53,578 bases of DNA from a virus (Duplodnaviria; Heunggongvirae; Uroviricota; Caudoviricetes), in the IMG/VR virus record IMGVR_UViG_2671181188_000017; one strand, 5' to 3'. The translations under genes were made by a program, and so were the position numbers. Positions within the stretch are counted from its first letter, which is position 1; each line of letters opens with the position of its first letter. Below the pieces are notes generated by a model. That model did no database searches, was not told the DNA's origin, and saw only the letters and a program-made list of their open reading frames with translations. This document shows, one piece after another, positions 17,229 to 19,918 of the stretch.

Positions 17229-18110
17229 ATGCTTATTGGCTATGTCCGCGTATCAACAAATAACCAGAATACGGAATTACAGCGTAATGCGCTGGAGTGT
17301 GCAGGATGTGAGCTGATTTTTGAAGACAAGATAAGCGGTACAAAGTCCGACAGACCAGGACTGAAAAAGCTGCTCAGGACATTATCGGCAGGTGACACGC
17401 TGGTGGTCTGGAAACTGGACCGACTGGGGCGCAGTATGCGGCATCTTGTCGTGCTGGTGGAGGAGTTGCGCGAACGAGGCATCAACTTTCGTAGTCTGAC
17501 GGATTCAATTGATACCAGTACCCCAATGGGGCGCTTTTTCTTTCATGTGATGGGTGCCCTGGCTGAAATGGAGCGTGAACTGATTGTTGAACGAACAAAA
17601 GCTGGACTGGAAGCAGCTCGCGCACAGGGACGAATTGGTGGACGTCGTCCCAAACTTACACCAGAACAATGGGCGCAGGCCGGGCGATTAATTGCATCAG
17701 GCGTTCCTCGCCAAAAGGTGGCGATCATCTATGATGTTGGTTTGGGAGAAGCGGCAAAACGGGATGTGGGGACAGGGGAAAATCAGATACCGGACATGGC
17801 CTCTTTTGCCAGTGGTGATGGATGGATGAAATTACCCAACGGGAAAATCCTGCAATATGGTCGTGGTGCGGTTACGCCGACATTATCGACGCAAACAATG
17901 AGAATTACATTCAGCATCCCTTTCTCCAAAAAAGCGGACTGCGCCATGCTTACTCATTCTGGTGATGGCGGTGCGCCTTTAGGCGCTGGGCGAGGGTTCG
18001 TGATGACTGCAGAAGGCCCAACGTTAACCGGCTTTAATTCTGCTTACAGAACGTCATCAACCAGCGACACGGTATCGATGAATTACAGTTGGTGGGCTGT
18101 TGGTGAGTAA
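17229..18110 (+). CDS. Pin/Gin/Hin-family serine DNA invertase, C-terminally truncated and fused in frame to an alternative tail-fibre variable segment
   Basis: Track ORF 17184..18110; residues MLIGYVRVST..SDRPGL..GRIGGRRPKL..VAIIYDV match serine invertases up to codon 185 (nt 17738); the expected VSTLYK recognition helix and stop are absent, and the frame continues into a tail-fibre-like C-terminus. Confidence 0.75.
   Translation: MLIGYVRVSTNNQNTELQRNALECAGCELIFEDKISGTKSDRPGLKKLLRTLSAGDTLVVWKLDRLGRSMRHLVVLVEELRERGINFRSLTDSIDTSTPMGRFFFHVMGALAEMERELIVERTKAGLEAARAQGRIGGRRPKLTPEQWAQAGRLIASGVPRQKVAIIYDVGLGEAAKRDVGTGENQIPDMASFASGDGWMKLPNGKILQYGRGAVTPTLSTQTMRITFSIPFSKKADCAMLTHSGDGGAPLGAGRGFVMTAEGPTLTGFNSAYRTSSTSDTVSMNYSWWAVGE
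17737..17750. repeat. Half recombination site (ttggtttgggagaa), inverted copy of the left half of the 19616..19641 site
   Basis: Perfect 14-bp inverted repeat of TTCTCCCAAACCAA; begins exactly where invertase homology ends. Confidence 0.7.
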
Positions 18111-18121
18111 TTTTATTCAGG

Positions 18122-18574
18122 GTGATTTATATGAATGAATATGTTTATAGCGCAAGGCATAATGCTTTTTTCCCTGTGGATATGATTGATAAATATAAAT
18201 CAGAGGGATGGGATTTATCAGACGCTAAGGAAGTAAATCAAAATATTATCAGTGAGTTTATGGCTGAACCGCCACAAGGAAAAATCCGTATTGCCGGAGA
18301 TGATGGGCTGCCTGCGTGGGCAGATATTCCTCCACCCACGCATGAAGAACTTATTGAAATTACTGAATCAGAAAGACAGCTACTAATTAACCAGGCCAAC
18401 GAATACATGAACAGTAAACAATGGCCCGGTAAAGCCGCTATTGGTCGTCTGAAAGGTGAGGAACTGGCGCAATATAATTTGTGGCTGGATTATCTGGATG
18501 CACTGGAGCTGGTTGATACCTCCAGTGCGCCAGATATTGAATGGCCTACGCCTCCGGCAGTTCAGGCCAGATGA
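18122..18574 (+). CDS. Tail fibre assembly protein (alternative copy inside the invertible segment)
   Basis: 150 aa; C-terminus DTSSAPDIEWPTPP parallels the minus-strand copy (DTSTAPDVIWPELP); convergent with 29-nt 3' overlap. Confidence 0.8.
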   Translation: MIYMNEYVYSARHNAFFPVDMIDKYKSEGWDLSDAKEVNQNIISEFMAEPPQGKIRIAGDDGLPAWADIPPPTHEELIEITESERQLLINQANEYMNSKQWPGKAAIGRLKGEELAQYNLWLDYLDALELVDTSSAPDIEWPTPPAVQAR

Positions 18575-19148
18575 CATCCGGCGCGGTGCTGGTATCTGTT
18601 GCCGTCACCGCGTCAATGTAATCCAGCACAGCGTTAAGTCTGGTTGTTTCTGCCTGCGTCGGTTTACGTCCGGCCTGCAATTTCAGTTGAATCAGACTGA
18701 TGGAAGCCATTGCTGCATCAATCAGTGCCTGGCGCTGTGCTTCTGCCGCTTCTACTGCGGCACCGTGTTGTGCCTCAGTATCTGTCACCCATTTTTCACC
18801 ATCCCATTTATCGAATGGCGTTAACGGGGCGATAGTGGTTGTATTTTCAGGATAATCACCCGGAGCTGTGATTTCTTTGGCGTCTCCCGTTTCGGTGTTA
18901 TAGACGATTTCACCGCGATGGTCTGGCACATATTCCCATGAGTTTAAATCCATCGAACGGCAGATAGCATAACCCGCCTTATGTATACCAGGTTCATCCA
19001 GACAGGAATATGCAGGGATACCGACACCAATGGCAAGATATTCATTTGAAGTAGAAATATATTCCCGAGTTTTACCATCATAGTTATAGACGGTAATATT
19101 CCCCGCCTTCGTGGCAATAAGCTCGCTATTTAATACGGCGTTATCCAT
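18546..19148 (-). CDS. Tail fibre assembly protein
   Basis: 200 aa, typical Tfa C-terminal motif; start overlaps the tail-fibre stop. Confidence 0.8.
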   Translation of the reverse strand: MDNAVLNSELIATKAGNITVYNYDGKTREYISTSNEYLAIGVGIPAYSCLDEPGIHKAGYAICRSMDLNSWEYVPDHRGEIVYNTETGDAKEITAPGDYPENTTTIAPLTPFDKWDGEKWVTDTEAQHGAAVEAAEAQRQALIDAAMASISLIQLKLQAGRKPTQAETTRLNAVLDYIDAVTATDTSTAPDVIWPELPEA

Positions 19149-19918
19149 TATGCAGCCCTCACGATATAGTTAAATGCAATATTTCGTGGACGGGTTTCAC
19201 TCCCGCCAGTATTACCGATACTCCCTCGTGAATGAAGTGTCGGTGATGGGATCAGACTCCCTCCTGTATTTGTGGCATCAAGTCCCCGTCCTTGTGTGTA
19301 TGTCTTTTTGAAAATCGTAGCCAGTTCCCATTCATCTTTTGTGTCGTAACCATCATTGGCAACAACAATATGGCGGTGTTTTTCCAGCATCCCTGTCTGA
19401 ATGCTCAATAAAACACGTCCTGCATCAATACCGCGCCCGTCATCCCAGCCACGAATAAACTCACCACGTAAATCAGGCAATTTATTTGTCGGATAAGCCT
19501 TTGCCAGTTCCGGGTATTCTTCAGCAGAAAAAGCCGCACCGTTGCATTTCAGCCAGCCTGTTGGCGGTGTGGCTGAAGGCCATGGAACAGGCACACCAAC
19601 AGGTAATGCAGAGCCTTCTCCCAAACCAAGGTTTTCGAGAGCCGTTTGCACAGTGCCATCCGATTTGATATCGCCAAACGGATTCTTGCGGCTTAACAGC
19701 AGCGCGCGAAGTGCGGTAAGTAACTGGTCGTGCCGCCCCTTCTCCAGGCTGGCACCGGATGCCTCCACCACGCTGCAAAGTTCCTCCTGCAACATGTCAA
19801 AGTAGTCATCATCCAGATCGGTGGCAGGCGTGCCGGTCTGGGGGTTACCACGGGTAAAACCGTTCTTACCCGCGCCGAACTTATCCTTCTGCGCGGTTTT
19901 CGTGTCTATACGATGCAT
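19148..19918 (-). CDS. Tail fibre protein (constant N-terminus plus variable C-terminus)
   Basis: 256 aa, G-rich fibre C-terminus; contains the full invertase site at codons about 92-101. Confidence 0.8.
19616..19641. repeat. Gix/pix-like invertase recombination site (TTCTCCCAAACC AA GGTTTTCGAGAG)
   Basis: 26-bp imperfect palindrome matching the AAACC-NN-GGTTT core of Hin/Gin/Cin/Pin sites, inside the tail-fibre gene. Confidence 0.65.

Follow-up and report, generated by a model that had tools for sequence, protein, structure and literature searches.

DNA invertases need DNA-bound dimers in order to act. In the family that includes Pin, Gin, Cin and Hin, a Fis-bound enhancer is required in addition to such dimers (PMC3798978), and for one member, Cin, rare use of secondary crossover sites, with gene fusions as the result, has been described by Arber (PMC4270481). 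The closest described relative of the system considered here is Pin with its P-segment in the e14 element of E. coli K-12. Below, we describe a locus of the e14 type in the IMG/VR virus record IMGVR_UViG_2671181188_000017, a stretch of 53,578 nucleotides referred to throughout as the window, in which the invertase gene (pin, or pinE) has been split by the inversion of a 579-bp segment and its 5' part fused to an alternative tail-fibre sequence. We shall argue, with a probability of roughly 85%, that secondary-site recombination by the invertase, or by a paralogue of it, inverted this segment and so broke the enzyme's own gene.

The unrearranged allele, which is found in relatives of the window and is called parental here, has the same gene order and orientation as e14 (ymfQ, stfP and tfaP, then tfaE and stfE on the other strand, then pinE). 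The e14 Pin protein is identical to the parental Pin at 174 of 184 residues (94.6%), and the closest solved structure is that of Mu Gin (3uj3/4m6f; E 1e-93). Alignment to the e14 pin and Mu gin regions had been proposed in a preliminary description of the window, made from the sequence alone. The two crossover sites of e14, the one adjoining pin (TTCTCCCAAACC AA CGTTTATGAAAA) and the one within the fibre gene (CTCTCGAAAACC TT GGTTTGGGAGAA), are almost the same as those of the present system, and the e14 gene carries the same GATGTTGGT. The window differs from e14 in that the first 170 codons of pin, together with the region upstream of them, are inverted; the gene is split and fused to the alternative tail-fibre C-terminus (S'v), and the invertase-proximal site has become two hybrids.

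Inversion of part of the invertase gene

Positions 16900-20000 of the window are matched in 33 complete E. coli genomes, mostly O157:H7, over only 82% of the length and in two pieces; among the matches listed, identity is 99.6-100% in 30 genomes. The complete E. coli genome NZ_CP066748.1 was used as the parental reference. In it, pinE is intact, encodes 184 residues and lies on the opposite strand, flanked by a GIY-YIG gene on one side and the S'v fragment on the other, facing away from the invertible segment. According to blastn, positions 1-40000 of the window are collinear with this genome, with five mismatches and one inverted block as the sole exception: 17157..17741 aligns reversed at 100% identity, with ambiguous overlaps of 6 bp (ACCAAC/GTTGGT) at both ends. 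The inverted segment proper, 17160..17738, comprises the upstream region of pin and codons 1-170, and is reversed with respect to all relatives. When it is re-inverted in silico at the AA/TT dinucleotides, the product matches the reference exactly over 1,200 bp and contains an intact 184-aa pinE. The exchange was conservative, no base having been gained or lost, and reciprocal hybrid sites stand at the two junctions. Another IMG/VR record, IMGVR_UViG_2684623171_000017 (53,554 nt), which has nearly the window's length and coordinates, holds the same region in the parental orientation with an intact pin; this suggests that the two records cover one predicted prophage region in sister genomes.

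The open reading frame (ORF) at 17184..18110 on the plus strand matches in Pfam, in this order, Resolvase (PF00239, E 3.6e-51), part of HTH_7 (PF02796, profile positions 1-34 of 45 only) and Gp53-like_C (PF21882); its catalytic domain includes the serine-nucleophile motif GYVRVS (MLIGYVRVST...). In RefSeq relatives, pinE starts at the ATG equivalent to 17229 and the annotated protein has 184 residues. Counted from that start, the window encodes a fusion of 293 aa (17229..18110, plus strand; Pfam), consisting of Pin residues 1-171 (the catalytic domain, the E-helix and helices 1 and 2 of the helix-turn-helix, HTH), then LGE... and 120 further residues of S'v. Likeness to a Pin-type serine invertase ends after Val170/Gly171 (nt 17738/17741), and the frame runs on through 123 codons of Gp53-like sequence to a stop at 18108-18110, in good agreement with the continuation of about 120 codons noticed earlier. 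The preliminary description had the homology ending at codon 185, nt 17738; the nucleotide position is right, and the codon is Val170 of the annotated protein, the different numbering having arisen because an in-frame ATG further upstream was counted. That ATG, 45 nt before the annotated start (17184-17228), would add a 15-residue N-terminal extension, MANWHHPRFLLRGML, and is the start used by some database entries (P0031, 199 aa). The complete C-terminal HTH with its recognition helix is present in the parental allele of the relatives and absent from the window ORF, in which residues 172-184 of Pin have been exchanged for tail-fibre sequence, and the gene must accordingly be counted as a disrupted member of the Gin/Pin/Cin/Hin subfamily.

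The recognition helix had been described as missing, which is correct for the ORF but not for the locus. In tblastn with intact Pin, residues 170-184 match 17162..17118 on the minus strand, and direct translation of 17162..17115 on that strand gives VGISTLYKKFPVGDK. This detached 3' end of pin (17115..17162, minus strand) codes for (V)GISTLYKKFPVGDK, the HTH recognition helix with the stop, and has kept its original orientation; its 14 codons and stop lie ~575 bp upstream of the break on the opposite strand. The explanation offered at first was an invertase-mediated deletion that took the 3' end of pin and joined the gene to the alternative fibre segment. Such a deletion would account for an ORF without a recognition helix and for a join at a crossover centre, but the codons supposed to be lost are those just described, the window and its relatives are equal in length across the region, and the parental pin faces away from the segment, so that a deletion could not yield the fusion. 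We give it a probability close to nil. An invertase-mediated event is still the best cause; the rearrangement itself is an inversion and no deletion, because re-inverting 17160..17738 restores the relatives base for base.

The possibility had also been raised that intact homologues would share the C-terminus of the window protein, as would be the case if the invertase natively ended at a crossover site in the manner of P1 cin. The intact homologues end in ...YDVGISTLYKKFPVGDK, which excludes a site at the natural end of the gene; they have 13 further residues beyond the point of the break and are directed away from the segment, and this reading was rejected. The 80 close Pin loci fetched from IMG/VR are all intact, with a match to Pin through residue 178 or beyond in every case, and their invertase-proximal site is canonical apart from a few sequence variants. 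A fusion protein without the recognition helix should, from what is known of the family, be unable to bind crossover sites. We infer from this that the fusion has lost its activity, and that the window element can probably no longer flip anything by itself; no second invertase was found in the window by tblastn, a weak match at 612..535 being spurious and inside a LysR-family gene.

Crossover sites and the course of the exchange

Three sites of the parental arrangement have to be distinguished. P2, the canonical site within the tail-fibre gene (19918..19148, minus strand), is intact in the window at 19616..19641 (plus strand, TTCTCCCAAACC AA GGTTTTCGAGAG), where the preliminary description had placed it; it lies at the boundary between the constant and variable parts of the gene (...ENLGLGE...) and is almost the same as the e14 site in stfP. 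P1, the invertase-proximal canonical site, reads TTCTCCCAAACC AA CGTTTAAGAAAA and is centred 69 nt before the start codon of pin. The third, Q, is a quasi-site inside the invertase gene, TGTCGATATACC AA CATCATAGATGA, which spans pin codons 166-174 and has its centre in the GTT codon of Val170. P1 and Q are 577 bp apart, and their central dinucleotides are inverted relative to each other (TT at P1 and AA at Q on the parent plus strand).

In the window, the parental P1 and Q are represented by two hybrid sites, each of which keeps one canonical half. The left hybrid (17148..17173, plus strand), obtained by junction mapping and site reconstruction and not part of the earlier account, reads TGTCGATATACC AA CGTTTAAGAAAA and joins the left half of Q to the outer half of P1. 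The right hybrid (17725..17750), likewise reconstructed, reads TTCTCCCAAACC AA CATCATAGATGA on the minus strand and joins the canonical inner half to the right half of Q. The parental allele thus has two full sites, and the window one (19616-19641) and a hybrid with a single canonical half. It was this half that had drawn attention to the junction: TTGGTTTGGGAGAAG at 17737-17751 repeats 19615-19629, the left half and centre of P2, in inverted form without a mismatch over 15 nt, and the exact 12-mer TTCTCCCAAACC occurs in two places only in the 53.6-kb window. By our estimate, ~0.005 such 15-nt inverted pairs would be expected by chance in 3.1 kb. The break also falls, as had been stated, at the central dinucleotide of the crossover site. 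The reading frame survives the exchange because TT makes up the second and third letters of a codon on each side of it, GTT (Val170) in pin and CTT (Leu in ...ENLGLGE) in the fibre sequence.

The following course of events would produce this arrangement. P1 would have recombined with Q in pinE instead of with its normal partner, P2, in the tail-fibre gene. A dimer on P1 would form a synapse with a second dimer bound weakly to Q, each site would be cut at its 2-bp centre, the subunits would turn through 180 degrees, and religation would follow, being allowed because the centres of P1 and Q match. The inverted block would carry the upstream region of pin, the presumed enhancer and codons 1-170; the enhancer is expected in the 5' part of the invertase gene, that is, inside this block. 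The outcome would be a Pin protein that reads into S'v at residue 171, recognition-helix codons that stay on the other strand, and the two hybrid sites. Pin itself, or one of its paralogues, is the probable catalyst. The role of the central dinucleotide in the choice of quasi-sites is, to judge from the way they are cited, the topic of references 50 and 51 in PMC4134206.

A number of points weigh against this interpretation. Q is a poor site, the halves of which match the site consensus at ~4-5 of 12 positions; a crude matrix built on six canonical half-sites places it 48th among the 8,257 AA/TT-centred 26-mers in the window and seventh among the 519 within 3 kb of P1. With so weak a match, sequence alone leaves the two independent uses of this site (see below) unexplained. 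A scan with a degenerate Fis motif gave pairs of candidate sites with a spacing of 46-50 bp (one of them centred at 17329 and 17379), the motif being too loose to carry weight. Upstream of pin, promoter prediction gave nothing for the parental arrangement or for that of the window, and a terminator scan of the surroundings was no more informative in either.

Recurrence and rarity

A homology search with the fusion protein returned mostly ordinary invertases, and the sole comparable fusion is a 445-aa invertase/tail-fibre protein of Salmonella enterica (P0047; GCA_025340925.1, locus L042, 4900-5520). Other long matches were set aside as upstream-start extensions, frameshifts or fusions with insertion sequences (IS). 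The Salmonella locus has the same layout as the window, with a 578-bp inversion that has its junctions at the homologous Val-Gly codons (...RVALIYDVG|LGETINL...), a pin remnant ...LSTLYRKFPVSKLA* upstream on the other strand, and the hybrid sites CGTCGACAGCCC AA GGTTTATGGAAA and, on the other strand, TTCTCCTAAACC AA CGTCATATATAA. Re-inverting the 578 bp gives a 185-aa invertase, an exact copy of which is found in other Salmonella assemblies. The Salmonella DNA has GTT GGG where E. coli has GTT GGT, and the Salmonella invertase is 84% identical to the query; with the two cases distinct at the DNA level, the Salmonella prophage must have undergone an inversion of its own at the homologous codon. 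The self-inverted Salmonella locus adjoins umuDC-like genes.

A third off-target event, involving the same proximal site P1, is found in the IMG/VR record IMGVR_UViG_2563366820_000006 (3780-4165; window equivalent 17739-18063). Here, P1 has recombined with a quasi-site, TTCTGCTTACAG AA CGTCATCAACCA, that lies inside S'v (window equivalent 18038-18063) and has an AA centre; 311 bp of the alternative fibre segment are inverted and pin is intact. Its junction was found in none of 5,426 complete E. coli genomes. In the window, in the Salmonella event and in this third case alike, a canonical site has been paired with a poor partner that has the same central dinucleotide and stands in the orientation for inversion. 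This bears on the alternative that the inversion arose by illegitimate recombination independent of any invertase, for example by template switching during replication at the inverted microhomology ACCAAC/GTTGGT, since a 6-bp inverted repeat does flank the segment. However, all three independent events, which have only 4-6 bp in common, have their exchange point in the middle 2 bp of a canonical 26-bp site, and thousands of equal or longer inverted microhomologies exist elsewhere. We regard an origin of this kind as very improbable.

The arrangement seen in the window is extremely rare. Its left junction occurs in none of the 5,426 complete E. coli genomes, as against 570 with the parental junction, and with a generic 179-nt junction query, which does not depend on the GIY-YIG flank, none of the 4,588 matching places is covered to 80% or more. 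The exact 293-aa fusion protein was found on two Logan contigs only, and intact Pin on at least 1,000. Scans for the hybrid-junction patterns GAYGTTGGTTTGGGAGAA and TAYGAYGTTGGTTTRGGRGAA in GTDB representative genomes, IMG/VR and JGI metagenomes gave chance matches in unrelated taxa, the third event described above excepted. An arrangement that is present in no complete RefSeq E. coli genome might be taken for an artefact of assembly or scaffolding in the source record, but several observations make this scarcely credible. The Logan assembly SRR23524067, which holds one of the two contigs and may or may not be from the window's own strain, has the identical arrangement and is identical to the window over 7.6 kb; a 579-bp segment with repeats of only 6 bp is no substrate for mis-assembly; the junctions are exactly at crossover centres; and the homologous case in Salmonella has been assembled twice.

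The tail-fibre module and known systems

The parental locus is a tail-fibre inversion system of the e14/Mu type in an O157:H7 myovirus-like prophage. This prophage combines a sheath and tube with Mu-like baseplate genes, a head of the HK97 type and lysis genes of the lambda type. The invertible segment is complete in the window (17739..19627) and contains S'v (17739-18110, plus strand), tfa' (18131-18574, plus), tfa (19148-18546, minus) and Sv (19627-19148, minus), as judged from Pfam (Caudo_TAP twice, Collar and Gp53-like_C) and the RefSeq annotation of NZ_CP066748.1. Two alternative fibre C-termini are thus placed head to head, each with its own Caudo_TAP assembly gene. In the present orientation, the expressed tail-fibre gene (19148..19918, minus strand; Collar in Pfam, a tail fiber protein in the reference) consists of the constant part and Sv and encodes 256 aa. 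The two convergent assembly genes had been correctly recognized in the preliminary description, but not as what they are: they were taken for the remains of an invertible segment, whereas the segment is whole and identical to that of relatives, in which both orientations occur. Among genomes with a 100%-identical pin, the pin|S'v junction is found in 271 and pin|Sv in 826, with 100%-identical examples of each, and the protein collection contains each form of the fibre (the 220-aa one on 267 contigs, the 256-aa one on 927); these counts describe relatives with the parental genotype and not the rearranged genotype of the window.

After the event, the segment is probably frozen in cis. The alternative fusion that its continued flipping would give, Pin 1-171 joined to Sv (329 aa), is not in the protein collection by exact look-up, so that there is no evidence that the large segment went on flipping. 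A frozen state overall is plausible as far as cis-acting inversion is concerned; O157:H7 relatives have 2-5 pin-like loci per genome, and inversion in trans by such loci may occur. A further possibility is that the change is a programmed and reversible switch, in which Val170-Gly171 is maintained as a weak crossover site through which the invertase turns off its own gene and locks the fibre orientation, and which paralogous invertases of co-resident prophages could reset. If this were true, the locus would have an autocatalytic off-switch that flips a promoter-proximal 0.58 kb and yields a catalytic-domain/fibre fusion. Amongst the observations in its favour are the independent use of the same codon in E. 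coli and Salmonella, the frequency of GATGTTGG in Pin-family genes (63 of 71 loci, and also e14), the report of an intragenic inverton inside a Bacteroides invertase gene (10.1101/2023.03.11.532203), and the several pin-like loci just mentioned. These must be set against the extreme rarity of the arrangement (none of 5,426 complete genomes, with 570 parental), common sequence of only 6 bp with a poor match to the consensus, synonymous GTA or GTG at Val170 in seven of 71 relatives, the missing Pin-Sv fusion, and the other one-off scars at quasi-sites, which fit sloppiness better than design. A programmed switch is, in our view, unlikely.

As regards the neighbourhood, 60 bp separate the pin 3' remnant from the stop codon of a gene for a LEM-3-like GIY-YIG nuclease. 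This gene, an AraC-family regulator and an IS integrase-core fragment occupy 14237-17054 of the window, between pin and a P4-like satellite that lies beside the prophage end (~2665-13750, by collinearity with NZ_CP066748.1). The satellite has primase-helicase, Icd-like, psu, ogr/delta and integrase genes, together with AAA ATPase and 'ABC-three component system' genes that are probably anti-phage cargo. At ~37523-37816, by the same collinearity, a gene for the iss (increased serum survival, bor-like) lipoprotein adjoins the lysis cassette of the prophage.

Secondary-site recombination by the invertase or a paralogue, the explanation that we favour, makes the window a clean natural example of off-target recombination by a Pin/Gin/Cin-type enzyme that disables its own gene. 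Taken together, the three scars suggest that such invertases leave occasional marks in the vicinity of the switches they serve, and that one of the ways in which an invertible tail-fibre module can decay is the self-inactivation of its enzyme. Annotation pipelines would label such an ORF a 'recombinase/tail-fibre fusion protein' or a truncated invertase, calls that are explained once the small inversion is recognized.

Secondary-site recombination by P1 Cin is said to have been reported by Iida and Hiestand-Nauer in 1986/1987. The Cin quasi-sites resemble the present case in that, as summarized in PMC4270481 and as references 50-51 are cited in PMC4134206, a canonical site recombines with a poor one at low frequency, with a common central dinucleotide, conservatively and with gene fusions as a possible result. 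They differ in that the Cin events came from laboratory plasmid selections, whereas the window holds a natural chromosomal variant, with the quasi-site in the invertase's own coding sequence and the codon used in two genera. The layout of Salmonella Hin, with the invertase gene and enhancer between two inverting sites ~0.6-1 kb apart (PMC3798978), is similar; the whole hin gene, however, lies between the sites and is intact in either orientation, whereas in the present system one site is inside the gene, so that inversion truncates it.

Prophage Phi4 of EC958 also has a tail-fibre inversion module with its own invertase lacking the HTH; the segment still flips, for which the authors credit another invertase in trans (PMC4134206), and the truncation was not described as a self-inversion. 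In intragenic invertons, too, an inversion end within a coding sequence recodes the protein, and one of them, of 57 bp, is in an invertase gene, BT0375 of Bacteroides (10.1101/2023.03.11.532203). Those, however, are proposed to be programmed, with both orientations coexisting, whereas the event in the window is rare and joins a canonical site to a quasi-site. Literature searches found no description of self-inversion of pin. The locus is a natural case of a known phenomenon in a known, e14-type Pin system, and no new mechanism is called for; its peculiarity lies in an enzyme that has apparently put its own gene out of action, and in the independent use of the same codon in Salmonella.

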